Shown one piece after another: positions 11,120 through 35,637 of a stretch of 64,000 bases of DNA. Below the pieces are notes generated by a model. That model did no database searches. It had not been told where the DNA came from and saw nothing but the letters and a program-made list of their open reading frames with translations. Where the stretch lies: NCBI GenBank assembly GCA_024276605.1, contig JAJRWX010000005.1, positions 49 through 64,048 on the forward strand, in the 5' to 3' direction. The position numbers and the translations under genes were made by a program. The first letter of the stretch is position 1. Each line of letters begins with the position of its first letter. Source of the stretch: Planctomycetota bacterium (lineage in GTDB: Bacteria > Planctomycetota > Phycisphaerae > UBA1845).

Positions 11120-11149
11120 AACCAGATAGTCGCGATCGAAACAAATCGA

Positions 11150-18131: not shown

Positions 18132-18184
18132 TTTTATTCGCGCTGCATGGACAATAGACGCATTCGTTGCAGGAAGAAACGAGC

Positions 18185-19261
18185 ATGGCCAAGAAACAAC
18201 TTATCACCAAGGTGTGGATCGAAGAAGGGTGCATCGTCTGTGACGCATGTGAAACCGCCGCCCCGGAGGTGTTTGAAGTTATGGACGACACCTGTGTGAT
18301 TCGCCCGGACGCTCTCAATGCTGAATTTACAAAACCCCGTAGCGAGGGAATTGTGGACGCTGCAGAAGAATGTCCGGTAGATGTCATCAAATTTGACAGT
18401 GATACGGTAGAAGTGGCTGACGAAGCCCCTACTGAACCCGCCGCAGCACCAGCGACTGAGACTCAAACGGCACCATCACCAGCCAAAAAAGCACCGGCAG
18501 CCGAGCCGAAAAAAGCTGCCCCCCAAAAAGCCCCCGCCTCAGTTGGCAAAACCAAAGCGCCCAGTGCAGGCGAGCCTGATCCATCGATTCAAGCCCTGTT
18601 AGAGGCTGCCACTTCGCGCGGCGGAAATGCCGGCATCATGCGAAACTCCACAGAGGTACCAACCAGTGCCCAGGGATGGCGAGCGACAGACGTGGACAAT
18701 CTTCCACCTGATGCGAGACAGGCTAAAGTCGTCGAAGCGGCCCAAAAAGCCAAAAAACAATCCGCGCTGCATCGACGCGATTTTGTGAGCAATAGCGCCG
18801 TAGCCATAGGCTGGACGGCGTTTGGTGTGGGAACGGGCATTTCGATCGGACCGGCCTTTGGGCGTTTTATGATGCCTAACGTATTGGAAGAGCCGGACCC
18901 ACGCATTCGCGTCGGCAAGATCACAAGATACATGGAGATGGCTCCCGGCGATGTGAACGAAGACTACAAGCCACAAGGCATCTGGATGATCCGCGATGAG
19001 GATCGTATCGCAGCTTTGAATATTATCTGCACGCATCTGGGGTGCATACCTAATTGGCAACCAAACGATCGAAAATTCAAATGCCCCTGCCATGGCAGCG
19101 GTTACTATTCGGACGGCATTAACTTCGAAGGACCGACACCGCGCCCGCTGGAACGATTCAAGATCACGATCAAGGATGGCATCGTCATTGTAGATAAGAG
19201 CAAGAAATACCAGTATGAATTAGGACAATGGGATCAGCCGGGAAGTTACATCCTAGTCTAG
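18185..19261 (+). CDS. Ferredoxin-domain / Rieske 2Fe-2S fusion subunit of a cytochrome b6f/bc-type complex
   Basis: The start at MAKKQ is preceded by a GGAAGAAA Shine-Dalgarno. The N-terminus carries CIVCDAC...ECPVDV (a single-cluster ferredoxin). An Ala/Pro/Lys linker follows, then RRDF plus a TM helix (Tat-like anchor). The C-terminus carries the Rieske motifs CTHLGC...CPCHGSGY. Confidence 0.85.
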   Translation: MAKKQLITKVWIEEGCIVCDACETAAPEVFEVMDDTCVIRPDALNAEFTKPRSEGIVDAAEECPVDVIKFDSDTVEVADEAPTEPAAAPATETQTAPSPAKKAPAAEPKKAAPQKAPASVGKTKAPSAGEPDPSIQALLEAATSRGGNAGIMRNSTEVPTSAQGWRATDVDNLPPDARQAKVVEAAQKAKKQSALHRRDFVSNSAVAIGWTAFGVGTGISIGPAFGRFMMPNVLEEPDPRIRVGKITRYMEMAPGDVNEDYKPQGIWMIRDEDRIAALNIICTHLGCIPNWQPNDRKFKCPCHGSGYYSDGINFEGPTPRPLERFKITIKDGIVIVDKSKKYQYELGQWDQPGSYILV

Positions 19262-19296
19262 CGCCCATAGGTCATGCACAGGAACTGAACTAAACC

Positions 19297-20076
19297 ATGA
19301 TTAACCGTTTTGGCAATTGGGTTCGCGAAGGTCAAATTTGGGGGAGCATTTTCCGCCATGGTGTACCACGCGATCGGCGTACACGGGCCATGGCCATTTT
19401 GAGTAACGTGTTTCTACATTTGCATCCGGTAGCCATACGCAAGAGCAGTATCCGCCTCTCGTTCACGTGGTGCATGGGTGGTATCACTTTCTTCTTATTC
19501 CTTGTAGAGATTGTGACCGGCGTTCTGCTGATGTTTTATTACCGTCCTACCGTCGAATATGCTTATTTCGACATCCAAGGCCTTCGAGCACATGTGACGC
19601 TCGGACTGTTACGCGAGTTGCACCGTTGGGGCGCTCACGCGATGGTCATTACCATTTGGCTACACATGCTCCGCGTATTTTTAACGGGCAGCTATAAACC
19701 GCCGCGCGAATTTAATTGGAGCATCGGCGTCATCCTTTTGGTGCTCACCTTGCTACTGTCCTTTACAGGTTATTTGCTCCCGTGGGATCAATTAGCCATG
19801 TGGGCGATTACCGTGGGATCCAACATGGCCCGAGCAACGCCCGGCGCAGGCTCGGAAGGACCGTTGAGCGCATTCATCCAGATCGGCGGTGTACCGTTGG
19901 TTCATGCCGGCGACGATGCACGGTTTGGACTATTGGCCGGTACTTTTGTCGGACCTAATGCCCTGTTACGGTTTTATGTACTCCACTGTGTGTTTATTCC
20001 GTGCGTTGTGACAGTTCTCCTGGCCGTTCACTTTTGGCGTATTCGTAAGGATGGCGGCGTCAGCGGCCCATTGTAA
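19297..20076 (+). CDS. Cytochrome b6-like (N-terminal half of a split cytochrome b)
   Basis: 259-aa ORF with four TM helices. The haem-ligand His context is [36 protein letters not shown]. Confidence 0.9.
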
Positions 20077-20136
20077 TGAACCGCAATAATTGTGATCGAG
20101 CCTTAATACCGGCTATAGAAACTGGCAATCGTTAAT

Positions 20137-21255
20137 ATGGAAAGTGGGATGGATTCGATACTAGCAGCTTCATCAACACTAGACAGCGTTAAACATTTTA
20201 TCAACGTCGCTTGTGAGCCACACTGGTTTTTAATCATATCAGTGTTGGCATTCTTCATCTTCCTGATCGGATATCGCACTTGGACAAAGCCGATCGTGGC
20301 AGGCACGGTGAGTGCGCTGGCTACTTTGTTTTTCCTGGCTAGTTGTGCGGATACCAACTTCGCAAAAATTGTCACTAAAGCGGATAATGTCCCCATCGTC
20401 ATCATGATGGTCACAGTGAGTTTCCTTCTTTGGCTGGCCTTTCGGCAGGCAGCTATCAATGACGAGCGCATGGAAAAAGGTGAGCCACTGATCGAAGCCG
20501 GCGCTGACGACAAAGTGCTTGTTTGGCCGGATCTCGTATATAGTGAACTAATCGCCTTGGTTCTGTGTACCGCACTGCTCATCGTCTGGGCTATCATATT
20601 ACGTGCACCACTGGAACAACCGGCGGACCCCAACGTCGCCCCAAACCCGGCTAAGGCGCCGTGGTACTTCCTCGGCTTGCAGGAAATGCTGGTGTATTTC
20701 GACCCTTGGCTCGCAGGCGTAGTATTTCCAGGACTTATTATTGTAGGGCTCCTTGCCATTCCGTACATCGACAAAAACCCCAGAGGCAATGGGTATTACA
20801 CGTTCAAAGAACGTAAGTTCGCCATTACCACGTTCCTGTTTGGGTTTGTCATATTGTGGGTGGTGTTGATCATTTTCGGCACTTTTCTACGAGGACCAAA
20901 CTGGAACTTCTTCGGCCCTTACGAGTTTTGGGATCCCCACCGACCTGCGGCCCTACTCAACACGGAATTTCACGATTTATTTTGGGTCAATACACTCGGT
21001 CGACCATTGCCTGGTCATTATCTAATACGTGAACTTCCGGGCATCGTATTACTTGGGGCTTACTTCATGCTTGGCCCGGTCATTATGAAATGGTTGTTTT
21101 TCAGAAAGATTTCACGCGACATCGGATTTATACGTTACAGTGTCTTGTGCGTATTGATCCTGTTTATGTTACTCATGCCGATCAAGATGGTGCTCCGTTG
21201 GACGTTGAACCTTCACTACATCGTCGGCATTACGGAATGGTTCTTAAATGTGTAG
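20137..21255 (+). CDS. Cytochrome b C-terminal half / subunit-IV-like protein, extended
   Basis: 372-aa polytopic membrane protein. It carries a PEWY-equivalent motif (KAPWYFLGLQEML). It is longer than canonical PetD because of extra TM helices. Confidence 0.8.
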   Translation: MESGMDSILAASSTLDSVKHFINVACEPHWFLIISVLAFFIFLIGYRTWTKPIVAGTVSALATLFFLASCADTNFAKIVTKADNVPIVIMMVTVSFLLWLAFRQAAINDERMEKGEPLIEAGADDKVLVWPDLVYSELIALVLCTALLIVWAIILRAPLEQPADPNVAPNPAKAPWYFLGLQEMLVYFDPWLAGVVFPGLIIVGLLAIPYIDKNPRGNGYYTFKERKFAITTFLFGFVILWVVLIIFGTFLRGPNWNFFGPYEFWDPHRPAALLNTEFHDLFWVNTLGRPLPGHYLIRELPGIVLLGAYFMLGPVIMKWLFFRKISRDIGFIRYSVLCVLILFMLLMPIKMVLRWTLNLHYIVGITEWFLNV

Positions 21256-21320
21256 ATTTCGCGCATGGCGCGCGGCATAGTTAACCCAAAATAGCCTTAT
21301 CGATCGTGGATTAGAGCATC

Positions 21321-24300
21321 ATGCCGATTCCTGAAAGTTTCCTGTATCGCCCGGAAAAGATAAACGTCTGGTTCGCCGTCAGCAGTGTATTGATGGCCCT
21401 CACTATCGGATGGTTTATAGCCGTCGACTATATTCGTCCCTGGCACGAATACCAAGACGACTATTACGTCGCCAAAGCCGCTATTGCGCATCTGGACTAT
21501 CTGGATGCCATGAAACAGGAGAACCAGCAAAAAATCGATGAAGCGAAAGTGCGTCGAGATGACGCCCAGGAATATATTGATAGCACGGCATCTGAACAAT
21601 TGGCCATGCTCGATGAGAATTTAATCAAAGCTGAGCTGGAATTCAAGAAAGCCAACGCCAATTTCAGTGCAACGTCACAGGTGCTCGATGTGACGCGGGC
21701 CGGGTATGAAGAAATCCTGGCTCAATACGGTGAGCAACATGCCATCACACAGAAATCTCATAAGCAGGTCCGCCTTGAAGAGGATCTTGTCGCAGGGTAT
21801 CAGCAGGATAAAGAACTTTGGGAAGACCGTGTCGCGGAGATTGAGACGCAAATCAAACAGTTGCTCGCCCCGCTCACATCAGCCGAAAAACAGCTTCGCG
21901 ATTTAGAGGCCATAGCCGCGGAAGCCCTCCAGAAAGACCAGCAGTACCGAGGCGTTCTAGACGATGAGGGATTGCTAGGCGGCTTGCCGATCGTCAGTTC
22001 TGTTATCAATGCGCCGTTACTTGACTTTGTCTCTCCTAGAAACACACCGGCTCGCTACCAGGTAAACCAACTGGTACTGCCCGAGATTCGCCAACAACTC
22101 AATTACTTAGTCACCTACACGACCGACCGCTGCACGACCTGTCATTTAGGCATCGCAGATCCGGACTTCTCAAAGGACCGATTAGCCCAGCGATTGGAAC
22201 GATCCCTTCCAGGCATTTTGGAAGCCATGCAACGCATGGGACAAGACCCACCGGACCTTCCCTCGCCACCGAAAACGACTACCGGCACCCCTATTCCTGC
22301 CGGTCAGGTCACGGAACACTGGCAGGAATTAAGCAGACAGCAGCAGGATGATTATTTTGATACGCTGCTGCGCATGGTCAACGAATATTTTAAGGCTAGC
22401 GGGCGCAAGACCATTGAACTGGGCCAACCTTTACTCGCCCACCCGGACCTCGATTTATACGTGTCCGTTGAATCTCCACATCCCATGGCCAAGGTAGGGT
22501 GTACCGTTTGCCATGAGGGCAATCCTCAAGAAACCGATTTCGTTCTTGCCGCCCACACACCACCCACCCACGAAATTGAGGAGGAGTGGGCCGATAAGTA
22601 TTATGATGTCAACCTGGGCGTTCCGACAGCGACATTCGATCTTGTCGAACATTATTGGGATCGCCCCATGCAATTACCGAGGCACAGCGAAGCAGGATGC
22701 GCCAAGTGTCATAGTCAAATCACCGATATTTCCCGCCACCATGAAAAAAATGTAGGGACGATGCTCAATCGTGGCCGCCAATTGTTCACATCGGTCGGCT
22801 GCGTGAACTGTCACACGGAAGACACCATGCCCAACGCACGGCGTGTGGGTCCGGACCTCAGACATATTGCGTCTAAATTGCGTCGCGATTTTGTCGAGCC
22901 TTGGGTTATGTTTCCGCAAAAATTCCGACCTTCCACACGCATGCCGCATTTTTTCTTGCAGGAAAACAATCGGGAAGGGAGTGAGAACCAATTCGATCCC
23001 CATCCATTGTTGCGCAGCGAAACAGAAACCGCTGCCATTGCGCAGTATCTATTTGCTTTGTCCAGTGACTTTTCACCGCTGGAAAAACTCGATGATGTCG
23101 AAGGTGACGTCGAACGGGGTCGCACGTTATTTAAGTCGTTTGGTTGCCTGGCCTGCCATGGCAATATCGCGGAATTCGGGGAAACCTGGATCACGAAAGA
23201 CTTACAACACCGCCTCGATCTAGACGAGAAAACAGCCGGATTCCGCTACAAAGGTATGACTTACATCGAGCGTGTGAAGTATGCCATGGAGCATTTCGGC
23301 TCTGAGTCCGACGGTGTTTTTGACGCGGATCGCGTACGATTCGAGCCGGATCAAGATTATAAACCGCCGACTTTCAGCCGATTTGCACCAGAACTCTCCG
23401 GCATTGGTTCAAAAGTGACGTCCGCATGGCTGTACTCCTGGTTAATGAAACCCGCGCATTATGCCCCTGACACGAAAATGCCCAATATGAGGCTAACCAG
23501 TGCGGACGCCGCCGACATCACCGCCTATCTTATGACGCTTCGGAACGAATCGTTCCAACAAGATCGCATCGACATGAATGCCGACCGTCTCAAGATGGCT
23601 GACGACCTCATATTCACACTGTTGACCGCTCAGCGTAGTGAGCGCCGCAGTCGGGCCATCATGCAGGATGAAGGTCAAGAACTCACTAATATGCTCATAG
23701 CTTTATTAGAACCTTCGTTGGGGCAGCAACCGGCCTATGATTTAATCTCTGCCCAGACGCTCGAAGATAAAAAACTTACCTTTTTGGGCAGCAAAATGAT
23801 TGGTCATTATGGCTGCTATGCCTGCCATAATATTACCGGCTTTGAAACGACCACCCCACCGGGTACAAATCTGACCACGTGGGCACAAAAACCTATCTCG
23901 CAGCTTGATTTCGCGTTTTACAATTACGCGTTCCATCACATGCGAGAGGAAAAAGAAGATGTCTTCGGCCATCTTTATCCTCCAGGGTCGGAAACAGATC
24001 CGGAAGATGTGAACTACTGGTCTCCAGGCATCAACCCACGGGAACAGATCACACATACACATTCCGCTTTCGCCAAACACAAGTTGCGTAATCCACGGTT
24101 GTGGGATAGGGAGAAAATCAAGAAGCCCTACGACAAGTTAAAAATGCCCAACTTCTACCTGACGGACGATGAAGCTGAAACGTTGACAACATTTTTGCTC
24201 TCTCGCAAACCCGCCCTGGTTAGCGAATCGCTACAGATTGATTATCAGCAGAATAGCCTGGGCGCTATCGCCAAAGGGCGAGAACTCACGCGAGAACTGA

Positions 24301-25550
24301 ATTGTATAGCGTGCCATCAAATCGAAGAAAATGCCCCTATCATCCAACAGTATTTCTCACAAGAAATATCAGGCATAAGAATGTTCGACGCCGTCAATGC
24401 CCCTCCGCTTCTATGGGGTGAAGGGGCTAAGATCCAACACCATTGGCTGGACAAATTCCTGCATAATGTAGTACCGTTACGTCCTTGGTTACAAGTACGC
24501 ATGCCAAGCTTTAACTTGACCAAGGCACAGTCTTCGACCTTGGTTGAATACTTCGCCGCGCTGAGTCAACACGACTCTAAACATCTGGACAAGATGACCA
24601 AGCCAGTACATGAATACATCGCAGACGAGAAAAAACGTGCAGCGCATCTTGGGGTGGCAGGTGAAGAAACTCCTTCAGATTCGGAACCGGGATTGGACTG
24701 GTATCAGCAAGAATCCCTATCTTCCATCGCTAAAAATCTACGTCATTGGTCAATTGAGCATAAAGTGATGAGGTCCAGCGAACTAGACCTATTGAGGAAG
24801 TCACCCAAGCAGCTTCGCCAAGCCCATAAGAAATTATTGGAACGTGTTGATTTTCTCACCAGCCTATACGACGTTGAATATCCGTTCGTTGAGCCTACCC
24901 AGTCGCTATCACCGGATGATCGATTCGAAACCGGAAGCAAGTTTTTCAATGACATGGGCTGCTTGAAATGTCACGTATTCGGCGACATGCTGCCAGGACC
25001 GGCCAAGACGACTGACGAATTTGTCAATGTCTACCGCTTAGATGGCGTTCGCGGCGAAGGTGAATCAGCCACGGCTATCATCAACGGCATACCCTATTCC
25101 ATTGGTAGCATCATTGATGGCCACACACTCATCAGCGCGGAAAACATCTTCTACGATACCGGCGATGTTGAAACTAAAGCGATCTTTTCAGGTCCGAATG
25201 CTGCTGGAGAGATGGAAAACATACTGCTAGTGGCAGCCAGCGCCCCCAATCTCGCCTTGACTCATCAGCGATTGCAGCGTGACTGGGTAGTCGGTTGGAT
25301 GCTTGTCCCTCAGCTCATTCAGCCTGGTACGAAGATGCCGCAAAACTTCCCGGGCGGCGAAAGCCCCTTCGCAGGCTCAGAAGAGTACCCAGGAACAGGT
25401 GAGGACCATATCAATCTACTTGTGGATTACCTCTACGATGCCGGGGTTAAAGGTGTCCGATCGCCGCTAACCAAGATTACCCTCGAGGAGGATGACGGCG
25501 AATTTGACGATGAAGAAGGATTTGACGACGAAGAAGAGTTTGACGACTAG
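21321..25550 (+). CDS. Membrane-anchored octahaem cytochrome c (1409 aa) of the bc-type operon
   Basis: It has an N-terminal TM helix and then about 190 aa of heptad-like Glu/Lys/Gln-rich sequence. Eight CxxCH motifs are present: CTTCH, CTVCH, CAKCH, CVNCH, CLACH, CYACH, CIACH, CLKCH. The C-terminal tail is EEDDGEFDDEEGFDDEEEFDD. Confidence 0.85.
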   Translation: MPIPESFLYRPEKINVWFAVSSVLMALTIGWFIAVDYIRPWHEYQDDYYVAKAAIAHLDYLDAMKQENQQKIDEAKVRRDDAQEYIDSTASEQLAMLDENLIKAELEFKKANANFSATSQVLDVTRAGYEEILAQYGEQHAITQKSHKQVRLEEDLVAGYQQDKELWEDRVAEIETQIKQLLAPLTSAEKQLRDLEAIAAEALQKDQQYRGVLDDEGLLGGLPIVSSVINAPLLDFVSPRNTPARYQVNQLVLPEIRQQLNYLVTYTTDRCTTCHLGIADPDFSKDRLAQRLERSLPGILEAMQRMGQDPPDLPSPPKTTTGTPIPAGQVTEHWQELSRQQQDDYFDTLLRMVNEYFKASGRKTIELGQPLLAHPDLDLYVSVESPHPMAKVGCTVCHEGNPQETDFVLAAHTPPTHEIEEEWADKYYDVNLGVPTATFDLVEHYWDRPMQLPRHSEAGCAKCHSQITDISRHHEKNVGTMLNRGRQLFTSVGCVNCHTEDTMPNARRVGPDLRHIASKLRRDFVEPWVMFPQKFRPSTRMPHFFLQENNREGSENQFDPHPLLRSETETAAIAQYLFALSSDFSPLEKLDDVEGDVERGRTLFKSFGCLACHGNIAEFGETWITKDLQHRLDLDEKTAGFRYKGMTYIERVKYAMEHFGSESDGVFDADRVRFEPDQDYKPPTFSRFAPELSGIGSKVTSAWLYSWLMKPAHYAPDTKMPNMRLTSADAADITAYLMTLRNESFQQDRIDMNADRLKMADDLIFTLLTAQRSERRSRAIMQDEGQELTNMLIALLEPSLGQQPAYDLISAQTLEDKKLTFLGSKMIGHYGCYACHNITGFETTTPPGTNLTTWAQKPISQLDFAFYNYAFHHMREEKEDVFGHLYPPGSETDPEDVNYWSPGINPREQITHTHSAFAKHKLRNPRLWDREKIKKPYDKLKMPNFYLTDDEAETLTTFLLSRKPALVSESLQIDYQQNSLGAIAKGRELTRELNCIACHQIEENAPIIQQYFSQEISGIRMFDAVNAPPLLWGEGAKIQHHWLDKFLHNVVPLRPWLQVRMPSFNLTKAQSSTLVEYFAALSQHDSKHLDKMTKPVHEYIADEKKRAAHLGVAGEETPSDSEPGLDWYQQESLSSIAKNLRHWSIEHKVMRSSELDLLRKSPKQLRQAHKKLLERVDFLTSLYDVEYPFVEPTQSLSPDDRFETGSKFFNDMGCLKCHVFGDMLPGPAKTTDEFVNVYRLDGVRGEGESATAIINGIPYSIGSIIDGHTLISAENIFYDTGDVETKAIFSGPNAAGEMENILLVAASAPNLALTHQRLQRDWVVGWMLVPQLIQPGTKMPQNFPGGESPFAGSEEYPGTGEDHINLLVDYLYDAGVKGVRSPLTKITLEEDDGEFDDEEGFDDEEEFDD

Positions 25551-25649
25551 TATGCCCCTCAATTAGAAACAACAAAACACTTGCCATCGCAGGCGTGATC
25601 GCATACAACCCCTGCCTGAAGAATGGGAAGATGCAAGGAGAATAGACCA

Positions 25650-26384: not shown

Positions 26385-26458
26385 CCTTCATCACCTTAGC
26401 GTGATTGAGTGACAGTTATGGCAGTTAAAACATAGTAATGTCCGTTGGCTGCGCGGTT

Positions 26459-26618
26459 AGCGTCGCTGTCGAACACAGGGCCGGAACGGCAACAGTCGTT
26501 GTCGTCATTGTATTGCGTTTGTGAAAGAGTATATTCGTATTCGTTAGCGAACATGGCCGGTGTCGCTGACGAACTTAGGGCCGGATGATAATAGTCGTTA
26601 TCATCATTGCATTGCATT
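26459..26618. repeat. Two ~60-bp direct repeats exactly 100 bp apart in the cupredoxin-coxB spacer, each with a small hairpin
   Basis: R1 (26459-26518) is gcgtcgctgtcgaacacagggccggaacggcaacagtcgttgtcgtcattgtattgcg. R2 (26559-26618) is gtgtcgctgacgaacttagggccggatgataatagtcgttatcatcattgcattgca. The stems ggcaac/gttgtc and gataat/gttatc differ by paired changes. Confidence 0.6.
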
Positions 26619-26636
26619 AGTAAAAGGAAGGCGGAC

Positions 26637-27518: not shown

Positions 27519-27528
27519 GAACTTATTG

Positions 27529-29259
27529 ATGAGCGGCGATCACCACCACGAACCAAGCTTTATACGCAAATACGTATTTTCCGTCGATCACAAAGTGATT
27601 GGCATTCAATACGGCGTTACGGCGCTTTGTTTCCTATTTCTCGGCTTTTGTTTGATTATGATGATGCGCTGGCAACTTGCCTATCCTGGCGAAACCATGC
27701 CCATCATTGGCAATCTATTTGGCGAAGCAGCTATGCCCGGTGGCGTAATGTTGCCTGAGTTCTACAACTCTTTAGGTGCCATGCACGGTACGATCATGAT
27801 CTTCTTAGGCGTTGTCCCGCTTCTGGTTGGGGCCTTTGGCAACTATGTCATGCCGTTGCAGATCGGTGCCCCGGACATGGCCTTCCCCAAGCTTAATATG
27901 TTAAGCTACTGGTCTTACTTTCTCGGCGGGGTTGTGATGCTAGCCAGTTTTTTCGTGCCCGGCGGCGCAGCCAATTCCGGTTGGACTTCATATCCACCTT
28001 TGTCGGACATTGCCACTACCGGCCAAACATGGTGGCTCTTCGGCATGGTTTGTCTTATCACCTCTTCTTTGCTTGGCTCGGTGAACTTCATTGTAACCAT
28101 CGTGCAATTACGGGTCGAAGGCTTGACTATGTTCCGTTTGCCCTTTTTCGTATGGGCTCAGTTAATTACTTCATTCCTGCTATTACTTGCGTTTCCACCG
28201 CTTGAAGCAGCCGGCGTATTACAATTGATGGACCGCCTTGCGGGTACGAGCTTCTTTCTTCCTGAAGGCCTTGTAGTCAGCGGTGTCGTCCAAACACAGA
28301 TATCCGGTGGTGGTAGCCCTATATTGTGGCAGCACTTGTTCTGGTTCCTAGCTCATCCCGAGGTCTATGTACTTATTCTACCGGCGATGGGCATGGTCGC
28401 AGAGATCATCTCTATCAATACACGCAAGCCATTGTGGGGCTATCGAGCGATGATCTATTCCACCATTTTTCTAGGTTTTATGTCCTTCATCGTCTGGGCA
28501 CATCACATGTTCATGACAGGTATGGGCACGAAAATAAGTGCCTTCTTTGCCACAACTACAATGATCATTTCAATCCCTTCAGTCGTTATTTTAACCGCCA
28601 TGGTCATTAGCCTTTACCAAGGTGCCATTCGCTTTACTGTCCCTATGTTATTCGCCCTGGCTTTTTTGCCGATGTTCGCCATTGGCGGTTTGACCGGGCT
28701 TCCGCTGGGCTTACCCGCCTCTGACATCCATTTGCATGATACATATTACGTCATAGGTCATTTTCATTACGTCGTCGCACCGGGCACCATATTTGCCATA
28801 TTCGCTGGCATCTATCACTGGTTCCCCAAAATCACCGGTCGCACGTTGAATAAAACGCTAGGATACATTCACTTCGCGTTCTCTTTCATCTTCATCAATA
28901 TCATATTCATGCCCATGTTCTGGCAAGGTATGGCCGGTGTTTCCCGGCGACTGTACGACCAAACGGTGTACGCTCATGGCGATGCCGTGCAGTCTCTAAC
29001 CGTGATTTCTTCATGGGGCGCGTGGATGCTTGGGCTTGCACAAATTCCATTTATCATCAACTTTTTCATTAGCATCAAAGCCGGCAAAAAAGTGTCCGAC
29101 AATCCGTGGGAAGCAACAACACTCGAATGGTCCGCCCCTTCGCCGCCTCCGCATGGCAACTTTGCCACCGTCCCGGTCGTCTACCGCGGGCCTTATGAAT
29201 ATAGCGTACCTGGCGCTAGTAGCGATTATATTCCTCAACACATAACTACGGAGGCTTGA
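27529..29259 (+). CDS. ctaD: Cytochrome c oxidase subunit I
   Basis: The start at MSGDHHHEPSF is at 27529. Canonical haem-copper oxidase motifs are present: WFLAHPEVYVLILP, WAHHMF and GHFHYV. Confidence 0.95.
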   Translation: MSGDHHHEPSFIRKYVFSVDHKVIGIQYGVTALCFLFLGFCLIMMMRWQLAYPGETMPIIGNLFGEAAMPGGVMLPEFYNSLGAMHGTIMIFLGVVPLLVGAFGNYVMPLQIGAPDMAFPKLNMLSYWSYFLGGVVMLASFFVPGGAANSGWTSYPPLSDIATTGQTWWLFGMVCLITSSLLGSVNFIVTIVQLRVEGLTMFRLPFFVWAQLITSFLLLLAFPPLEAAGVLQLMDRLAGTSFFLPEGLVVSGVVQTQISGGGSPILWQHLFWFLAHPEVYVLILPAMGMVAEIISINTRKPLWGYRAMIYSTIFLGFMSFIVWAHHMFMTGMGTKISAFFATTTMIISIPSVVILTAMVISLYQGAIRFTVPMLFALAFLPMFAIGGLTGLPLGLPASDIHLHDTYYVIGHFHYVVAPGTIFAIFAGIYHWFPKITGRTLNKTLGYIHFAFSFIFINIIFMPMFWQGMAGVSRRLYDQTVYAHGDAVQSLTVISSWGAWMLGLAQIPFIINFFISIKAGKKVSDNPWEATTLEWSAPSPPPHGNFATVPVVYRGPYEYSVPGASSDYIPQHITTEA

Positions 29260-29263
29260 TTCA

Positions 29264-29884
29264 GTGTCAGCCGAGGTTCTTCCATATACTGTTAAACCGC
29301 ATCCCGTCACCGGCTTGTACAATGGCAAGTTCGGTATTTGGCTGTTTCTTGCCTCCGAGGTAATGCTCTTTGGCGCGTTGTTTTCAACCTATATCTTCCT
29401 GCGTATTGGTGCCCCGGAAACCGGACCAACCGCGTGGCCCACGGGTGAGCAAACCCATCTGAGCTGGAAGCTTGGCGGATTGAACACGCTCATTCTTATT
29501 CTTTCCAGCGTGACCATGGTCATGGCCTGGGTCCAATTCAAGATGGACAATCTCGCTAAGGGGCGCATGTACTTGATTGCCACAGCTGTTTTAGCCATAG
29601 CCTTTGTGGCTATTAAGCTGAAGTTTGAATATATGCATAAGTTTCATCTGGGTATCAAACCCTCCACCAGCGTCTTTTTCGCTATTTACTTTACCATGAC
29701 GGGACTGCACGCACTGCATATCATTGGCGGCGTCGTCGTGATCGCTTATTTCATCGGTCCCGGTGCAAAGCTTTGGCATGAAAACCGCGAATATTACACA
29801 AATCGAATTGAATGCACCGGCCTGTACTGGCACTTTGTCGATCTTGTTTGGATTTTTCTGTTTCCCATTCTCTATTTACTGTAG
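29264..29884 (+). CDS. ctaE: Cytochrome c oxidase subunit III
   Basis: 206-aa ORF with a GTG start and five TM helices. It carries WLFLASEVMLFGALF and the terminal YWHFVDLVWIFLFP motif. Confidence 0.9.
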   Translation: MSAEVLPYTVKPHPVTGLYNGKFGIWLFLASEVMLFGALFSTYIFLRIGAPETGPTAWPTGEQTHLSWKLGGLNTLILILSSVTMVMAWVQFKMDNLAKGRMYLIATAVLAIAFVAIKLKFEYMHKFHLGIKPSTSVFFAIYFTMTGLHALHIIGGVVVIAYFIGPGAKLWHENREYYTNRIECTGLYWHFVDLVWIFLFPILYLL

Positions 29885-29895
29885 GAGATCAGGTC

Positions 29896-30218
29896 ATGAG
29901 TGATGCACATGCAGACGTCACTAAACATGTTAAAGCATACATCGCTGTTTTTACTGCACTGATTACCCTAACGGTCGTCACGGTATTGGCATCCAGACTG
30001 ACGGTTGCACCGTCGGTACATGTAGCCATCGCGCTGGCTATTGCCGGTTTCAAAGCGTCACTCGTGGCTATGATTTTCATGCACCTTAAATGGGAAAGGC
30101 AGGCAATATCTGGTTTGTGCTAGCGCTAACAGCCGTTTTCTTCGCCTTCCTGGTTTGTATTCCTTCACTCGTATCTGCGGATAAACCGCTTGGCACTGTG
30201 TTTACTTCTTGGGGTTAA
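29896..30218 (+). pseudogene. ctaF: Cytochrome c oxidase subunit IV (prokaryotic COX4 type) with an apparent 1-nt frameshift
   Basis: The ATG at 29896 follows a GGAGA Shine-Dalgarno. Two TM helices precede FMHLKWE, and the frame then ends at 30123. The alternative frame reads GNIWFVLALTAVFFAFLVCIPSLVSADKPLGTVFTSWG* (to 30218), which is the expected third helix. The frame switch coincides with the A-run at 30095-30097. Confidence 0.65.
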
Positions 30219-30266
30219 CCAATTTATCGCAATAGCGAAAATATCAAGTAGAGATTTGTCGCAACC

Positions 30267-30473
30267 ATGTCACTCAAAGCATTCCACATTATCTTCGTGA
30301 TCTTTTCGTCGCTAACTGCGTTGGGTTTTGGCTTCTGGGCTATTCGTCACTATCGCCTGCACTGCGAATTGGCTGCTTTGATTGTTGGCATCGCTTCTCT
30401 TGTGGGTTGTGCGATGCTCATTATCTACGGTAAATGGTTCCTGCGTAAACTAAGGGGAGTCAGCTACTTGTGA
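30267..30473 (+). CDS. Small two-TM membrane protein in the oxidase operon
   Basis: 68-aa ORF with two hydrophobic helices. Its stop overlaps the next ORF start (GTGA at 30470-30473). No family recognised. Confidence 0.5.
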   Translation: MSLKAFHIIFVIFSSLTALGFGFWAIRHYRLHCELAALIVGIASLVGCAMLIIYGKWFLRKLRGVSYL

Positions 30474-30736
30474 TCCTACATCATCCACGAACATGCCTTT
30501 TCTTTTCTGTTATGGTGGTGTTTTGCCTGTTCACAACAACATCGGCCCATGCATGTGCCGTCTGTTTCGGCGACCCGGATTCGCCTATGTCCAAAGGCGC
30601 ATTGATGGGCGTGATCGTATTGCTAGGCATCATCGTTTCAGTACTTTGTGGCGTGACGGGTACAATCATATTTTGGATGCACCGTGCTCGGCAATTATCC
30701 ATCCAGCAATCCAACCACTCATCGACTAACATATGA
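30470..30736 (+). CDS. Small exported/anchored protein with a CAVCFGDPDSP motif
   Basis: 88-aa ORF. It has a signal-like N-terminus, a CxxC motif immediately after it, and then one TM helix. Its stop overlaps the ctaA start by 4 nt. Confidence 0.55.
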   Translation: MILHHPRTCLFFSVMVVFCLFTTTSAHACAVCFGDPDSPMSKGALMGVIVLLGIIVSVLCGVTGTIIFWMHRARQLSIQQSNHSSTNI

Positions 30737-31683
30737 CCGGTCCTTCGATATCTTTTTCCTCCACTAATTACCATCGTGGTTTGCACCTACTTGCGATTGC
30801 CACGGCATGTATGGTCTTTCCGCTGATTATCGTTGGCGCAGGTGTCACCAGTCAGGATGCTGGAATGGCTTTCCCGGATTGGCCTACTTCCAACGGACAT
30901 CTCGTGAATCCTCCACAATGGTGGCAACAAAACGACACCCGCTGGGAGCATGGTCATCGCCTTATCGGATGGGTTGTCGGCATGCTCGCTATCGGTACAA
31001 CCGCCCTCAGCTTCAAACGCGGAAAACCCGTCAAGCAACTCGCCATCGCTACGCTCATCGCGATCATCATTCAAGGGGTTCTCGGCGGGTTACGCGTACG
31101 CGAAATTTCTACATCGCTCGCTTTGGTTCACGGTATCTGGGGACAGCTGTGTTTTTGCTTAGCCTGCACGACAGCCCTTCTCTGCTCCAGGGGATGGATG
31201 TGTTATGATGGCGGGCCTCATAAAATTCGCGGTGCGTCGACGTTGCAACGATTATGCCTCGCATCTGTGTTCGCAGTATTCATTCAATTACTTAGCGGTG
31301 CAACCTACCGACACATGGCCATAAGTAGTGCCATATTGATTCATGTTTTGTGGGTTGTCATATTGTCTCTTGTGGTCGGATGTGTGGTGATGTGGATCAT
31401 CACACAAAATCACGGGCAAACGCTTCTTGGGAAACTGGGGAGAGCATTAGCTACCCTTATGGTTATCCAGCTATTCCTCGGTGGGTTCAGCTTTCTTATC
31501 ATCGTATTAAAAATGTCGAGTTCAGCGTTTGCGATATGGGCCATTCCCTCTGCACATGTAGCGGTGGGCGCTTTAATGTTCGCATGTTCGCTTTCGCTAT
31601 GTTTATGTTCTTTTCGTATACTTAGACCTGCTCCGGAGGAGGTCACGATAGATACAACCGGGCAGGCCACGGCTACATCATGA
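30733..31683 (+). CDS. ctaA: Haem A synthase (COX15/CtaA family)
   Basis: 316-aa ORF with eight predicted TM helices. The conserved His contexts are WEHGHRLIGW and YRHMAISSAILIHV. It lies directly before ctaB. Confidence 0.8.
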   Translation: MTGPSISFSSTNYHRGLHLLAIATACMVFPLIIVGAGVTSQDAGMAFPDWPTSNGHLVNPPQWWQQNDTRWEHGHRLIGWVVGMLAIGTTALSFKRGKPVKQLAIATLIAIIIQGVLGGLRVREISTSLALVHGIWGQLCFCLACTTALLCSRGWMCYDGGPHKIRGASTLQRLCLASVFAVFIQLLSGATYRHMAISSAILIHVLWVVILSLVVGCVVMWIITQNHGQTLLGKLGRALATLMVIQLFLGGFSFLIIVLKMSSSAFAIWAIPSAHVAVGALMFACSLSLCLCSFRILRPAPEEVTIDTTGQATATS

Positions 31684-32594
31684 GCGACACCTTACCATTG
31701 GCGGATCACGCGCGGGCCGTAGGCTGGTCTCGTTTTGCAGCCTATATTGAATTAACCAAACCGCGCGTCGCGAGCTTAGTGCTTGTCGCTACAGCCGTCG
31801 GTTATTTTCTCGCATTACCTGCCATCCCAGACATAACCGCATTCATTGGTTTAGCGAGCACCATCCTCGGCATCACGTTGGTCGCCGGTTCAGCCAACGC
31901 CATGAATCAGTTGATCGAGGTTCGCTATGACGCCATGATGACCAGAACACAAGATCGCCCGTTAGTCACGAATCGACTGACACCTTACGAAGTTCTCGTG
32001 TCTGCCACCATCGCTTGTATTCTGGGCATTTCCATTTTGGCTATCCAAACGAATCTACTCGCTGCGGCGCTCGCGCTGCTTTCATTCACAAGCTACGTGT
32101 TTGTCTATACACCACTGAAACGTACAACTACGCTTTGTGTCATCGTCGGGGCAGTTCCCGGTGCATTGCCTCCGGTCATCGGATGGGCGGCAGCCACGGG
32201 CACTATACCTTTAGAAGCTTGGCTGTTATTTGCTATCGTCTTCGTGTGGCAATTACCTCACGTAGCAGCCATCGCATGGCTCCACAAAGAAGACTACCAA
32301 CGTGCTGATTTCGCCATGCTCCCCGTCGTCGACCCCTCCGGCTTGCGCACATGTCTTCACATGATCACGCATTCCATCACGCTTCTTACGGTAAGTTTTC
32401 TACCCATCGTGTACGGTCTAGCAGGGACGACTTATTTACTAGGCGCTATGATACTTGGCGTTTCATTTCTTCTGGTAGGCGTAGCCTTTGTTTGGCTTAA
32501 GACTGCTTACATCGCCCGCGTTCACCTATTTTCTTCCATCACCTACCTACCCGCGTTATTTGCCGCCATGATGGTGGACAAGGTCGGCATCTAG
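31680..32594 (+). CDS. ctaB: Protohaem IX farnesyltransferase (haem O synthase)
   Basis: 304-aa UbiA-family protein carrying NAMNQLIEVRYDAMMTRTQDRP and VWQLPHVAAIAW. Confidence 0.9.
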   Translation: MSDTLPLADHARAVGWSRFAAYIELTKPRVASLVLVATAVGYFLALPAIPDITAFIGLASTILGITLVAGSANAMNQLIEVRYDAMMTRTQDRPLVTNRLTPYEVLVSATIACILGISILAIQTNLLAAALALLSFTSYVFVYTPLKRTTTLCVIVGAVPGALPPVIGWAAATGTIPLEAWLLFAIVFVWQLPHVAAIAWLHKEDYQRADFAMLPVVDPSGLRTCLHMITHSITLLTVSFLPIVYGLAGTTYLLGAMILGVSFLLVGVAFVWLKTAYIARVHLFSSITYLPALFAAMMVDKVGI

Positions 32595-32607
32595 CCTAGA
32601 TAGCGTA

Positions 32608-33570
32608 ATGCCCATGTCAGAGAAAGCCTGTGTTGAGGTCGAGTCAGTTTCCCATCAATACGGAAAGCGTTGGGCGCTCAACGACATTAGCTTTCAAGTA
32701 TACCCAGGCCAATTGTTTGCTTTGCTCGGCCCTAACGGTGGTGGCAAGAGCACGTTATTTCGTATCCTCACCACCCTACTTTCACCCACCAAGGGAACAG
32801 CGCGTATCGAGGGTGCAGACATTATCAAGCAATCGCACGATGTGCGCTGCTCAGTTGGCGTTGTGTTCCAAAACCCCAGCCTCGATGATCGACTCACCGT
32901 TTTGGAAAACCTCACCCACCAGGGACATCTGTACGGTTTGAAAGGCGTACCGCTTCGCCAACGCTGCCATGAAGTCATGGACGAGTTCGATATCGATGAC
33001 CGAGCGAAGGATATGGTTGGCATATTGTCGGGCGGCTTGAAACGACGCGTTGAACTGGCCAAGGCAAACCTTCATCATCCAAAAATACTCATTCTGGACG
33101 AACCCAGTACCGGCCTGGACCCCGCTGCCCGTTTAGGCCTATTTACTTACCTTGAAAAATTGCGCACCGCCGACGGGGTCACCACGCTGGTCACCACGCA
33201 CTTAATGGACGAGGCTGATCGTTGCGATATCGTAGCTTTCTTGGATGACGGCAAGCTAGTGGCCCTTGATTCGCCCTTAGCCTTAAAGCAAGCGATCGGC
33301 GGCGATGTTATTATAGTGACGACCCAAGACGCACCAGCCATGCATGAGAAAATCGCAAATAGATTTGGTGGGCAGGTGGATTTGATAGACAATGGTGTTC
33401 GTATCGAACGGGATCGAGGCCACGAGTTTGTACCGGAGTTAATCGAAGCCTTCCCCAACGAAATCGACAGCGTCACCGTCGGCAAACCCACGCTGGACGA
33501 TGTGTTCCTTCATTTGACAGGTCATCAACTCGCCAGAGATAGTCATGAAAACGTGGAGAATAATCGTTGA
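32608..33570 (+). CDS. ABC transporter ATP-binding protein (ABC-2 subfamily style)
   Basis: Walker A is GPNGGGKST, the signature is LSGGLKRR and Walker B is ILILDEPSTGLD. It overlaps the permease gene by 4 nt. Confidence 0.9.
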   Translation: MPMSEKACVEVESVSHQYGKRWALNDISFQVYPGQLFALLGPNGGGKSTLFRILTTLLSPTKGTARIEGADIIKQSHDVRCSVGVVFQNPSLDDRLTVLENLTHQGHLYGLKGVPLRQRCHEVMDEFDIDDRAKDMVGILSGGLKRRVELAKANLHHPKILILDEPSTGLDPAARLGLFTYLEKLRTADGVTTLVTTHLMDEADRCDIVAFLDDGKLVALDSPLALKQAIGGDVIIVTTQDAPAMHEKIANRFGGQVDLIDNGVRIERDRGHEFVPELIEAFPNEIDSVTVGKPTLDDVFLHLTGHQLARDSHENVENNR

Positions 33571-34361
33571 ATGAGTTGACCGGACATGCCTGGCTACTTC
33601 CTTCCGTCTCTCTTTGGCGACGGGAAGTGGTTCGATTTCTGCGACAGCGAGGACGGGTTGTTGGCGCACTAGGGACACCGGTGGTCTTTTGGCTGCTGAT
33701 TGGTTCCGGATTGCGTAACTCCTTCCGATTGCCGAACATGGACCAATCGATCAACTACCTGGAATACTCATTCCCCGGCATGTTGGCCCTGATCGTTTTA
33801 TTCACGGCTATTTTTGCGACGATTTCGATCATTGAAGATCGACGTGAAGGGTTTATGCAGGCGGTGCTGGCCGCCCCGGTCAGTCGTACAGCGATTGTAC
33901 TCGGTAAAGTTTTCGGTAGCACAACACTCGCCGTCGGCCAGGCATTGGTGTTTCTGCTGCTCATACCGCTTACCGGAATTCACGTCACGCTCGCAGGTAT
34001 CATACTGGCTGTAGCGGCATTAACTGTTATGGCTATCGGCCTGAGCGCCGTCGGCGTGTTGATCGCCTGGCCTATGGACTCCATACAAGGGTTTCATGCC
34101 ATTATGAATCTAGTTCTCATGCCCATGTGGCTATTGTCCGGTGCCTTTTTTCCAGCTAGCGGCGCATCCTCATGGATGGGTTGGATCATGGCCATCAATC
34201 CACTAACATACGGCGTAGCTACGCTGCGTCACGCGCTGTACATGGGCCAAGAACTTCCAGGTTCTCAGTACCCAGCACCGATGATGTCCTGGCTAGTTAG
34301 CTGTGCTTTTTCAGTGACCGCCATTGCTGTAGCGCAACGAATGATTTCACGGAAAGCGTAA
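33567..34361 (+). CDS. ABC-2 type transporter permease
   Basis: 264-aa ORF with six TM helices. It is translationally coupled to the ATPase gene. Confidence 0.85.
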   Translation: MNELTGHAWLLPSVSLWRREVVRFLRQRGRVVGALGTPVVFWLLIGSGLRNSFRLPNMDQSINYLEYSFPGMLALIVLFTAIFATISIIEDRREGFMQAVLAAPVSRTAIVLGKVFGSTTLAVGQALVFLLLIPLTGIHVTLAGIILAVAALTVMAIGLSAVGVLIAWPMDSIQGFHAIMNLVLMPMWLLSGAFFPASGASSWMGWIMAINPLTYGVATLRHALYMGQELPGSQYPAPMMSWLVSCAFSVTAIAVAQRMISRKA

Positions 34362-34362
34362 T

Positions 34363-35055
34363 ATGCTTACACTCGAAGATCCACCGAAAACAGAACCGTT
34401 CAACGAAGACAAGCCGGTCACGACTACCCATAGTCGGCGTGATAACAAATTGGTCGCGTTAGGTTTGGCCATCATCCTCCCTACCGTCGCATTTGCTTGG
34501 GCATGGAACAGTGGCGTAGACTCACTCGACGATACTCCCCTCAGCGTGCTTGGAGACGTACCGGAGTTTTCGCTGATTGACAGTACTGGAAAGATTTTCA
34601 CTAACGACGATCTAGTAGACAAACTATGGGTAGCGAGCTTCATCTTCACAAGGTGCTCAGGCCCTTGTCAGGAACTAAGCGCTCGTATGCGAAGTCTTCA
34701 ATATGCCCTACGGAATAAGGGCAGCGATGTAAAGTTGGTTTCCATCTCCATCGATCCCAAATTCGACACACCAGCTCGCCTGAACATTTTTGCTAAGCGT
34801 TATAACGCAGACCCGGCAACATGGTTTTTTCTGACCGGAGACAGCCAGGATGAGATACACAATCTCATGCGCTACGGTTTCATGCAGACGGTTATGCCGG
34901 CCAGTGGCGATGTACCGATACAACACAGCAACTATTTAGTCATTGTGGATCGCGCGGGCAAAATACGCGCTGTTAGGGATGGCATGGCCCCGGCCAGTAA
35001 GAAGCTAATCCTCCACGATCTTGAAAAGTTACGGGCAGAGAAACCCCTGACATGA
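34363..35055 (+). CDS. SCO1/SenC-family copper chaperone
   Basis: It has one TM anchor and a thioredoxin-like fold with the FIFTRCSGPC (CxxxC) motif and a downstream His (IQHSNYLVIVD). Confidence 0.85.
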   Translation: MLTLEDPPKTEPFNEDKPVTTTHSRRDNKLVALGLAIILPTVAFAWAWNSGVDSLDDTPLSVLGDVPEFSLIDSTGKIFTNDDLVDKLWVASFIFTRCSGPCQELSARMRSLQYALRNKGSDVKLVSISIDPKFDTPARLNIFAKRYNADPATWFFLTGDSQDEIHNLMRYGFMQTVMPASGDVPIQHSNYLVIVDRAGKIRAVRDGMAPASKKLILHDLEKLRAEKPLT

Positions 35056-35483
35056 TCGAATTGAGCGATCTGCCCAAACTGAACGCGACGCTAAATAGCA
35101 TCAGTTTTGTGTTGCTAGTCTCCGGTTTTATCTGTGTCAGGCGTGGCTTCATCACCGCCCACAAACGCCTCATGCTCTCCGCATTTTGCGTTTCCGTGTT
35201 CTTTTTGGCGTCTTACTTAACCTACCGTTTTTTGGGTGAAGAAAAGAGATTCACCGGCCAAGGCTGGATCAGGCCGATCTACTTCTTCATACTCATTACT
35301 CATGTGGTTCTAGCTGCGACAGTGCCAGTGCTCGCCTCCTGGACGCTTGTGCGAGGACTTCAGGGCAAGATCAACAAACACCGCAAATTGGCCCGCTGGA
35401 CGCTGCCTATATGGATATACGTCTCTTTTACAGGCGTCTTAGTCTATCTGTTACTTTTTAGACTCTACGGACCGTCAGGCTAA
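35052..35483 (+). CDS. DUF420-family membrane protein (oxidase-associated)
   Basis: 143-aa ORF. LPKLNATLNSISFVLLVSG...HKRLMLSAF...HRKLARWTLPIWIYVSFTGVLVY matches the DUF420 pattern. It overlaps SCO1 by 4 nt. Confidence 0.75.
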   Translation: MIELSDLPKLNATLNSISFVLLVSGFICVRRGFITAHKRLMLSAFCVSVFFLASYLTYRFLGEEKRFTGQGWIRPIYFFILITHVVLAATVPVLASWTLVRGLQGKINKHRKLARWTLPIWIYVSFTGVLVYLLLFRLYGPSG

Positions 35484-35637
35484 CCCCGATGTATATAAAG
35501 CAGTAGCCGCATGACACATGTCGAGTGGTGAGGATCCGCGTTGACTTCCGATGAGTTAGATTAGCGGCTCGAATTGGAGATTTAAGAATCTCGCAATACA
35601 CGGTTGGTTCGTTAAGCCATAAGGAAAGGTAGCCGAT

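Follow-up and report, generated by a model that had tools for sequence, protein, structure and literature searches.

A conserved Phycisphaerae gene cluster predicted to link a b6f-like complex to an aa3 oxidase through an octahaem cytochrome c and a cupredoxin

Described systems and the Phycisphaerae locus

Clustering of the genes for bc-type complexes and oxidases, supercomplexes of these enzymes, and cupredoxins as electron carriers are well known. The gene cluster considered here occupies positions 18185-35483, on the plus strand, of a 64-kb window (the whole stretch of DNA that was analysed) and encodes a ferredoxin-Rieske protein, a split cytochrome b, an octahaem cytochrome c (octaC), a cupredoxin, an A-family oxidase, and oxidase biogenesis factors. 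It is a real and conserved locus of marine and groundwater Planctomycetota of the class Phycisphaerae, and it represents no novel type of system but a variant, so far uncharacterised, of respiratory machinery that is already known. Members of this class occur widely in marine sediments, groundwater, and sponges; to our knowledge, hardly anything has been learnt about their respiration, and the locus provides a concrete conserved parts list for this process. All functions discussed below are assigned from sequence, predicted structure, and the comparative genomics of metagenome-assembled genomes (MAGs).

The b6f complex and the b6c-type menaquinol:cytochrome c reductases (QcrABC) of Bacillota resemble the encoded complex in their split cytochrome b, their Rieske protein, and the CxGG cysteine, and the likeness to b6f extends to the likely mobile acceptor, a cupredoxin here and plastocyanin there. 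In contrast to both, the 1409-aa octahaem protein replaces cytochrome f or the fused monohaem c, subunit IV has about eight helices and an APWY motif at the Qo site, the Rieske protein is fused to a ferredoxin domain, and a HEAT-repeat protein is co-encoded. No homologues of the PetG, PetL, PetM, and PetN proteins of b6f were recognised at the locus.

From the same phylum, the anammox bacterium Kuenenia has complexes (Kustd1480-1485 and Kuste4569-4574) that also combine b6-like and subunit-IV-like proteins with a hexa- or octahaem c instead of cytochrome f and with an additional cytoplasmic redox module (PMC12954380, PMC5600118). However, the present locus bears a small single-cluster ferredoxin on the Rieske protein and not an NAD(P) oxidoreductase subunit, has no HAO-like subunit, and pairs its complex with an aa3 oxidase and a cupredoxin in Phycisphaerae that are aerobic or facultative, the likeness of its octahaem protein to that of Kuenenia being one by description only. 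An earlier note on this DNA had stated that split-b complexes with multihaem c were already known in Planctomycetes, and this is borne out by Planctomycete genomics and the anammox complexome, where haem-ci-type complexes with hexa- or octahaem c and cytoplasmic redox modules have been described (PMC5600118, PMC12954380).

The actinobacterial bcc-aa3 supercomplex likewise oxidises menaquinol, employs a multi-haem c in place of soluble cytochrome c, and has a subunit II without a fused cytochrome c, and its CoxI is marginally the most similar in the PDB. Its QcrC is dihaem, its cytochrome b is unsplit, and it uses no cupredoxin, whereas the system considered here has an octahaem protein of a different architecture and a split b. 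Sulfocyanin in the archaeal SoxM system and halocyanin are blue copper proteins that carry electrons from a Rieske/cytochrome b unit to an oxidase; as predicted here, the copper protein is encoded with these enzymes and acts between the Rieske/cytochrome b unit and CuA. These archaeal systems function without a c-type cytochrome, whereas here eight c haems would precede the copper protein, which is secreted, bears an extra Ig-like domain, and is unrelated in sequence beyond the fold. Donor complexes or carriers, cupredoxin or multihaem c among them, are also co-encoded with aa3 genes in the rus operon of Acidithiobacillus ferrooxidans and in ACIII-caa3 clusters. The donors of the rus operon are Cyc2, Cyc1, and rusticyanin, ACIII belongs to the molybdopterin family, and neither is known to have a split-b Rieske complex with an octahaem c.

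The searchable literature, whose coverage is partial so that a prior mention is possible, yielded no description of the Phycisphaerae gene combination, the ferredoxin-Rieske fusion, the HEAT partner, the co-variation of tail and cupredoxin charges, or an A-type oxidase lacking the K-pathway lysine. The locus offers a predicted triad of donor, carrier, and acceptor (octahaem c, cupredoxin, CuA), apparently kept together by co-evolving charged tails; neither this triad, nor the ferredoxin fusion, nor the K-less oxidase overturns current bioenergetics, and each of the three provides a clean starting point for biochemistry or cryo-EM.

Predicted electron path from quinol to oxygen

The list of open reading frames (ORFs) and Pfam scans give an unbroken run of 17 co-directional genes across 18185-35483; the count of 18 in the earlier note is reached only by taking the two halves of the frameshifted ctaF as two genes or by including the HEAT gene that lies upstream. 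The gene identities first proposed hold, all genes being found on the plus strand at or adjoining the positions given there, and these identities uphold the view that a full quinol-to-O2 route is encoded together with factors for oxidase biogenesis. The genes are as follows:

18185-19261, plus strand: ferredoxin-Rieske protein, Fd-Rieske (Pfam Fer4_13 and Rieske)
19297-20076, plus strand: cytochrome b6 (Pfam Cytochrome_B, E=1e-39)
20137-21255, plus strand: subunit-IV-like protein (Pfam Cytochrom_B_C; about 8 predicted transmembrane helices)
21321-25550, plus strand: octahaem cytochrome c, octaC, 1409 aa (8 CxxCH; Pfam cytochrome c families)
25650-26384, plus strand: cupredoxin (fold and ligand residues)
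26637-27518, plus strand: COX2, coxII (Pfam COX2)
27529-29259, plus strand: COX1, coxI (Pfam COX1, 446 bits)
29264-29884, plus strand: COX3, short 5-helix form (Pfam COX3, E=2e-22; transmembrane scan)
29896-30217, plus strand: COX4_pro, ctaF, frameshifted (Pfam COX4_pro; three-frame translation)
30267-30473, plus strand: sm1, small membrane protein (2 transmembrane helices)
30470-30736, plus strand: sm2, small membrane protein (signal peptide, one transmembrane helix)
30733-31683, plus strand: CtaA, haem A synthase (Pfam COX15-CtaA)
31680-32594, plus strand: CtaB, haem O synthase (Pfam UbiA)
32608-33570, plus strand: ABC ATPase (Pfam ABC_tran)
33567-34361, plus strand: ABC-2 permease (Pfam ABC2_membrane)
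34363-35055, plus strand: SCO1 copper chaperone (Pfam SCO1-SenC; CSGPC...H)
35052-35483, plus strand: DUF420/CtaM (Pfam DUF420, E=6e-45)

Module 1 (16974-26384), which extends from the HEAT protein through the secreted cupredoxin, would form a b6f-like complex oxidising menaquinol, with the membrane-anchored octahaem cytochrome c as a substitute for cytochrome f or c1. Module 2 (26637-30736) would supply an A-family aa3 oxidase composed of CoxII, CoxI, CoxIII, and CoxIV together with sm1 and sm2, while module 3 (30733-35483, perhaps to 35858) would serve the making and insertion of cofactors through the haem O and haem A synthases, the ABC-2 exporter, SCO1, and CtaM. We assign a probability of roughly 0.6 to the reading that the locus is an aerobic respiratory core of these three co-located modules, in which electrons take the path from octahaem c via the cupredoxin to CuA and acidic tails dock the cupredoxin. 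The whole route would lead from quinol through the Rieske 2Fe-2S cluster, the eight c haems, the cupredoxin, CuA, haem a, and haem a3-CuB to O2. Through their matching acidic tails, octaC and CoxII would dock or tether the cupredoxin, a usually basic protein, by electrostatic attraction, and the cupredoxin would shuttle electrons from the last octaC haem to CuA. Such docking would be reminiscent of the acidic hinge protein and the acidic c1 domains of bc1 complexes.

OctaC contains exactly eight CxxCH motifs in its 1409 aa. A transmembrane helix anchors its N-terminus and is followed by roughly 200 aa of coiled coil; three N-terminal motifs then lie in a c7/c3-like stretch and precede five class-I-like domains. 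In the alignment, Met-Pro is invariant in each of the five class-I-like domains and His residues are invariant at haem sites one to three. An acidic tail, EEDDGEFDDEEGFDDEEEFDD (25485-25547), forms the C-terminus. The octahaem family spans two phyla, Planctomycetota and Acidobacteriota; more than 350 homologues were found, all unnamed or labelled 'c-type cytochrome', and those of Vicinamibacterales are 930 aa long and still carry eight CxxCH motifs. Neither a PDB sequence search nor a fold search returned a solved relative. The AlphaFold2 (AF2) model of residues 225-1409 has a pLDDT of 72, with values below 50 in the three-haem region, and shows no significant PDB fold match, the haem-to-haem geometry not being derivable from it. 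A Pfam scan of the window proteins revealed no homologue of cytochrome f or c1, in whose place the octahaem protein stands. The octaC gene is the sole credible c-type cytochrome ORF within the 64-kb window, which upholds the claim that no carriers besides the octahaem protein and the cupredoxin are encoded between the two complexes.

The cupredoxin escapes Pfam and NCBIfam, which give just a weak CarboxypepD_reg match and amicyanin at E=0.004; structure prediction and fold search settle its identity. The AF2 model, built from 31 homologues, has a pLDDT of 86.9, and its top Foldseek matches in the PDB are the cupredoxin domain of copper nitrite reductase (NirK) followed by amicyanin, pseudoazurin, and plastocyanin, with a probability of 1.0 and a target-normalised TM-score of about 0.6 against the single-domain proteins. 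The type-1 ligands H136, C175, H178, and M181 (CDVHPWM) are invariant in the 31 sequences and align with the amicyanin ligands; C58, C111, H116, H190, H218, and E219 are further invariant residues. The cupredoxin domain is preceded by a signal peptide and a Lys-rich N-terminal segment and followed by a C-terminal Ig-like CarboxypepD_reg domain, and the net charge of the mature protein is about +9. The product of the gene at 25650-26384 is a secreted, predicted type-1 (blue) copper protein.

On the acceptor side, CoxII has the CuA site H...CAQLCGNNHYSM and no CxxCH, so that the proposed absence of a fused cytochrome c domain is confirmed, and the CuA site marks the enzyme as one predicted to oxidise cytochrome c or a cupredoxin and not quinol. 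Like octaC, CoxII ends in an acidic tail (VEEFDEDELD, about 27471-27515), and the two tails, ...EEFDD in octaC and ...EEFDEDELD in CoxII, share a (E/D)(E/D)F(D/E)(D/E) flavour. Across clades, the two proteins change their type of tail (FDED-rich, EEFED, or poly-Glu) in concert. Their tail charges are correlated (Spearman 0.81; r=0.83, p=1e-7 in phylogenetically independent contrasts computed on a neighbour-joining (NJ) tree), and the net charge of the cupredoxin is correlated negatively with the octaC tail (Spearman -0.58; contrasts r=-0.46, p=0.005) and with the CoxII tail (contrasts r=-0.42, p=0.03), while the Rieske domain, used as a control, gives rho=0.06. The route from octahaem c through the cupredoxin to CuA is favoured because the tails co-vary and the cupredoxin charge opposes them, and this charge co-variation lends independent support to the dedicated wiring that had been proposed from the gene layout.

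Several points weigh against this reading. The charges that were compared are crude net values, with the mature N-terminus approximated and the phylogeny taken from an NJ tree, and the cupredoxin is not always basic: its charge is about -1 to -2 in the closest relative (L002) and -6 in L040 despite a poly-Glu tail. The bc-octahaem module occurs elsewhere without cupredoxin and oxidase, so its acceptor is not fixed, and the check for a soluble cytochrome c covered the 64-kb window rather than the whole genome. With a CoxI devoid of the K-pathway lysine and, in the assembly, a frameshifted ctaF, the activity of this particular oxidase is an assumption. Finally, promoter- and terminator-like sites in the 252-nt gap before coxII suggest that modules 1 and 2 are perhaps transcribed separately.

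The two enzymes might instead form an obligate bc:aa3 supercomplex of the actinobacterial type, in which the octahaem subunit reaches CuA directly and the cupredoxin is either a side branch exchanging electrons with other periplasmic enzymes or dispensable. OctaC is membrane-anchored, long enough for bridging two complexes, and conserved beside the oxidase, and a part of it weakly resembles the actinobacterial dihaem QcrC model of NCBIfam (E=3e-8, below the cut-off). The co-variation of the octaC and CoxII tails (r=0.83) also fits direct contact, yet it could reflect another shared partner or the local environment, and like-charged acidic tails are expected to repel each other, not to dock. 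Similarly, the best PDB matches of CoxI are mycobacterial supercomplex oxidases, but its similarity to the Paracoccus enzyme is practically equal. Moreover, the charge of the cupredoxin follows the tails with the opposite sign, and its gene co-occurs with cta and cox genes and not with the bc module itself. On balance, we consider such a supercomplex unlikely.

Gene order in relatives and the gap before coxII

The comparison covers 80 loci, one genome per species, obtained by an alignment-based scan, in which the window proteins were placed by tblastn; it includes Phycisphaerae MAGs with an octaC identity of 39-79% and Vicinamibacterales at about 31%. HEAT, Rieske, b6, subunit IV, and octahaem c constitute an invariant core across the 80 loci, and this core is also found in Acidobacteriota. 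The conserved gene order expected by the earlier note holds among close Phycisphaerae, the full order of the window being present in 18 of the 21 informative loci with an octaC identity of at least 54%, but farther out the order is inverted, moved, or absent. At 39-53% identity, the cox block lies inverted after ctaAB (four loci: L025, L027, L029, and L040), after DUF420 (one, L046), or in the position seen in the window (one), or is absent; an oxidase block at the locus is lacking in L001, L008, L026, L032-L036, and L039, and four of these (L034-L036 and L039) have neither cupredoxin nor oxidase. The cupredoxin gene adjoins octaC in every locus in which cta or cox genes come next and is missing from those without them, namely the four loci just named and Vicinamibacterales. 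The ctaA-DUF420 block, in turn, can occur without a neighbouring cox block (L052).

In Vicinamibacterales, the bc-octahaem module stands alone among unrelated neighbours in 22/22 informative loci. The loci of this acidobacterial group (L054-L080, at about 7500-12800 in each locus) represent a compact module without a cupredoxin or adjacent oxidase, composed of a Rieske protein that lacks the ferredoxin domain, b6, subunit IV, and the 930-aa octahaem protein. Genes downstream of octaC in the oxidase-less loci L001, L035, and L054 are unrelated (aminotransferase, WD40/PSCyt1 protein, isochorismatase-domain protein). In the close relative L008 (14309-17509), octaC and the cupredoxin gene are followed by a divergent ctaA-like gene (34% identity) and then by MTHFR, the stretch from the cox block to DUF420 being missing there.

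The order breaks in distant relatives always fall at the cupredoxin|coxII or the ctaB junction. The former corresponds in the window to the largest gap of the cluster, which measures 252 nt (26385-26636), as had been noted before, provided that coxII begins at the ATG at 26637; the remaining junctions are overlaps or gaps of at most 72 nt, with 49 nt behind the frameshift-corrected ctaF. Within the gap, some 99 nt are duplicated in tandem (26462-26527 and 26562-26626); the copies are 81-88% identical, and each includes a short hairpin and a AGGGCCGGA box. The last 100 nt or so of the gap are conserved with the close relatives L002 and L042, each of which has a single copy, and the gap of the window is longer because of the duplication. 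A consensus scan, which is weak evidence, placed a promoter-like site at 26409-26436, and a weak terminator-like hairpin at 26486-26505 is the only intergenic one in the scan. The Shine-Dalgarno sequence of coxII also lies in the gap. The predicted RNA fold of the 252-nt gap is not significant (z=-1.9). Terminator-like hits amount to 35 against 19.6 expected; they are mostly intragenic or located on the minus strand in the GC-rich linker region, and no interpretation is attached to them.

Since the breakpoints coincide with the 252-nt gap that holds a hairpin and a promoter-like site, the locus comprises at least two or three modules. Of the super-operon postulated by the earlier note, the common strand, the short gaps, and the absence of intervening genes stand, while a single transcript is unproven and distant relatives break the order. 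The locus is best described as three modules held together by selection in the clade and not demonstrably as one transcription unit.

The same observations bear on the idea that the modules are only loosely linked, so that the bc-octahaem complex serves as a general periplasmic hub, the oxidase is fed from elsewhere, and adjacency reflects co-regulation or chance. The solitary bc-octahaem module of Vicinamibacterales and of several Phycisphaerae loci, the inverted or moved oxidase block of other clades, and the promoter- and terminator-like sites inside the gap would all fit this idea, as would the resemblance of the three N-terminal c7/c3-like octaC haems to a low-potential multihaem module. 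However, adjacency outlasts at least three independent rearrangements, charge co-variation links proteins of both modules, and the window holds no other carrier gene, which renders a merely loose linkage distinctly improbable compared with the dedicated path through the cupredoxin. PCuAC-type copper chaperones employ His/Met motifs without Cys. It is very improbable that the cupredoxin is such a PCuAC- or CtaK-like chaperone or assembly factor for CuA or CuB instead of a carrier, even though cupredoxin-ctaA-ctaB(-sco1) arrays occur without an adjacent oxidase (L008, L031-L033, L052, and L075), the protein has additional invariant His, Cys, and Glu residues, and Pfam scans found no PCuAC or CtaG gene among the cluster genes, as its H...C-x2-H-x2-M pattern with amicyanin spacing and its amicyanin/pseudoazurin/plastocyanin fold are those of redox-active type-1 sites.

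Ferredoxin fusion, oxidase features, and borders of the cluster

The Rieske protein of module 1 starts with a single-cluster 4Fe-4S ferredoxin domain (CIVCDAC...CP, aa 16-64; Pfam Fer4_13), continues with some 130 aa of low-complexity Ala/Pro/Lys linker, then a twin-arginine motif (RRDFV, aa 197) and one transmembrane helix, and ends with the Rieske 2Fe-2S domain (CTHLGC...CPCH; Pfam Rieske, NCBIfam PetC-like), which is kept in all complete relatives. If the Rieske domain is exported, the ferredoxin domain would have to remain cytoplasmic according to the topology inferred from the sequence. Among the 80 loci, from which the distribution of the fusion was taken, every complete Phycisphaerae locus has it, and the ferredoxin domain is missing from the Rieske homologues of Vicinamibacterales and Planctomycetia (L075). 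A homologue search with the ferredoxin domain only gave just fragments and free-standing ferredoxins; the nearest free-standing relatives are 63-aa ferredoxins, 48-58% identical to the domain.

Cytochrome b6 has four helices and His pairs spaced x13 and x14, as read in the sequence, and bears a CxGG cysteine (WCMGG, aa 58); this motif is kept in 63 loci, and one further locus has WCAGG. In b6f-type complexes, this cysteine binds haem ci/cn (PMC5600118), and its presence implies a predicted haem ci in the cytochrome b6 of the locus. Subunit IV, which matches b6f subunit 4 in the PDB (E=8e-5), consists of a PetD-like core (aa 129-242) with extra helices on either side, the transmembrane scan giving about 8 helices in total. 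Its Qo motif, APWY (aa 174), is found in 69 loci and corresponds to an APWY clade described earlier (PMC4122944). Both motifs, CxGG and APWY, were already known in Planctomycetes from comparative studies (PMC5600118, PMC4122944).

Because the ferredoxin fusion is universal in the class and would lie on the same side of the membrane as Qi and haem ci, an n-side electron exchange between the b6f-type complex and ferredoxin-level carriers can be envisaged. The ferredoxin:quinone reductase activity of b6f itself has long been debated. Either low-potential cytoplasmic electrons would enter the quinone pool via haem ci, or quinol would be bifurcated between the octahaem/cupredoxin/O2 chain and ferredoxin; we regard both versions as doubtful. 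If true, n-side bifurcation would parallel the proposal made for anammox complexes with NAD(P) oxidoreductase modules. As a natural union of a ferredoxin with a b6f-like complex of the haem-ci type, the fusion touches on the long-standing question of the purpose of haem ci.

CoxI belongs to the A-family, with AHPEVY (Glu) and GAPDMAFP (the D-channel Asp) present. The K-pathway lysine, K362 in R. sphaeroides and K354 in P. denitrificans, is generally held to be essential; according to residue alignments with 1ar1_A and 8hcr_F, its position is taken here by Ile354 (28588-28590), within IPSVVIL (aa 349-355, 28573-28593) instead of PTGIK. All 23 related Phycisphaerae CoxI have I, L, or V at this position. 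Among the best 100 representatives covering the K-pathway helix, the only ones counted in a library of 1.8 billion proteins, 16 have I/L/V, 75 Lys, and 8 Gln; the 16 K-less ones are essentially the nearest to the CoxI of the window, and the next-nearest and most others keep Lys. They would constitute a predicted K-less subfamily of A-family oxidases.

The ctaF frameshift indicated by the first reading is real. A comparison at the protein level with 23 intact relatives and a DNA alignment place a 1-nt deletion at about 30095-30098, where the window reads GGGAAAGG and the relatives GGGA(A/G)AAGG; the shifted frame stays conserved codon by codon until the stop at 30217. As all 23 relatives are intact, the frameshift probably stems from a mistake in the assembly or from a mutation that arose very recently. 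The small proteins behind ctaF match no Pfam or NCBIfam family. Sm1 has an invariant N-terminal SLKxFH and a C-terminal YGxWFLxKL, and sm2 an invariant AC..C.GDP.S after its signal peptide; each is conserved in 21 loci, and both adjoin coxIV even when the block is inverted and always move with the cox block.

With ctaA and ctaB, the cluster contains the genes for haem A supply. SCO1 has its CxxxC and His residues, and DUF420 is CtaM, which in Bacillota is required for the activity of aa3 and caa3 oxidases (PMC9145763); CtaK and PCuAC are described in the same source (PMC9145763). The ABC-2 pair, predicted by sequence to be an exporter, gives generic DrrA/DrrB-like NCBIfam matches below the cut-off, and its position between ctaB and sco1 is kept in relatives.

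The cluster is probably larger than 18185-35483, with a HEAT gene before it and two mini-ORFs after it. These flanking genes had escaped the earlier note, as had the universality of the ferredoxin fusion in the class, the haem ci cysteine, the APWY motif, and the missing K-pathway lysine of CoxI. The flanking features are as follows:

16819-16847, plus strand: sigma-70-like promoter candidate TTGACT-17-AACAAT (consensus scan)
16974-18131, plus strand: HEAT-repeat membrane protein (Pfam HEAT_2, E=2.4e-8)
35638-35721 and 35778-35858, plus strand: mini-ORFs of 27 aa and 26 aa (sequence reading, scan)

A HEAT homologue lies immediately 5' of the Rieske gene in 45 of the 59 loci with sufficient upstream sequence, some Vicinamibacterales included. 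The next gene in the 5' direction encodes an unrelated, DAG-kinase-like protein, and the promoter candidate, a consensus match only in a group whose promoters are poorly defined, sits between the two. The HEAT protein has one transmembrane helix (aa 59-77), and its matches among PDB sequences are limited to designed alphaRep proteins and generic HEAT repeats. The location of HEAT/PBS-lyase-like repeats beside a predicted haem-ci-type cytochrome b6 is suggestive of an assembly role. A function as a haem ci lyase akin to phycobilin lyases would be pure speculation and is not claimed.

The mini-ORFs are tandem paralogues encoding the hydrophobic peptides MFDLAIGSILFFGILFLATFLGLFQTA and MNLFVGITAFVLALMFGLFDFLFQTG, each preceded by a Shine-Dalgarno sequence. 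Both are in frame in L081, the closest available relative, on which their conservation rests, the loci of other relatives stopping at DUF420; the changes are chiefly synonymous or conservative, and the peptides may be small subunits of one complex. Compared with L081, the window carries about 94 additional nt (35490-35583) between the DUF420 stop and the first mini-ORF. The mini-ORFs are followed by tRNA-Tyr and then by MTHFR, with the same flanks in L081. An Rfam scan of the cluster gave no match besides this downstream tRNA-Tyr, which marks the 3' end of the respiratory cluster. The tRNA-Tyr (GTA) gene is located at 36009-36091, behind a block conserved in L081 that contains TTGTCA...TAGAAC and is likely its own promoter.

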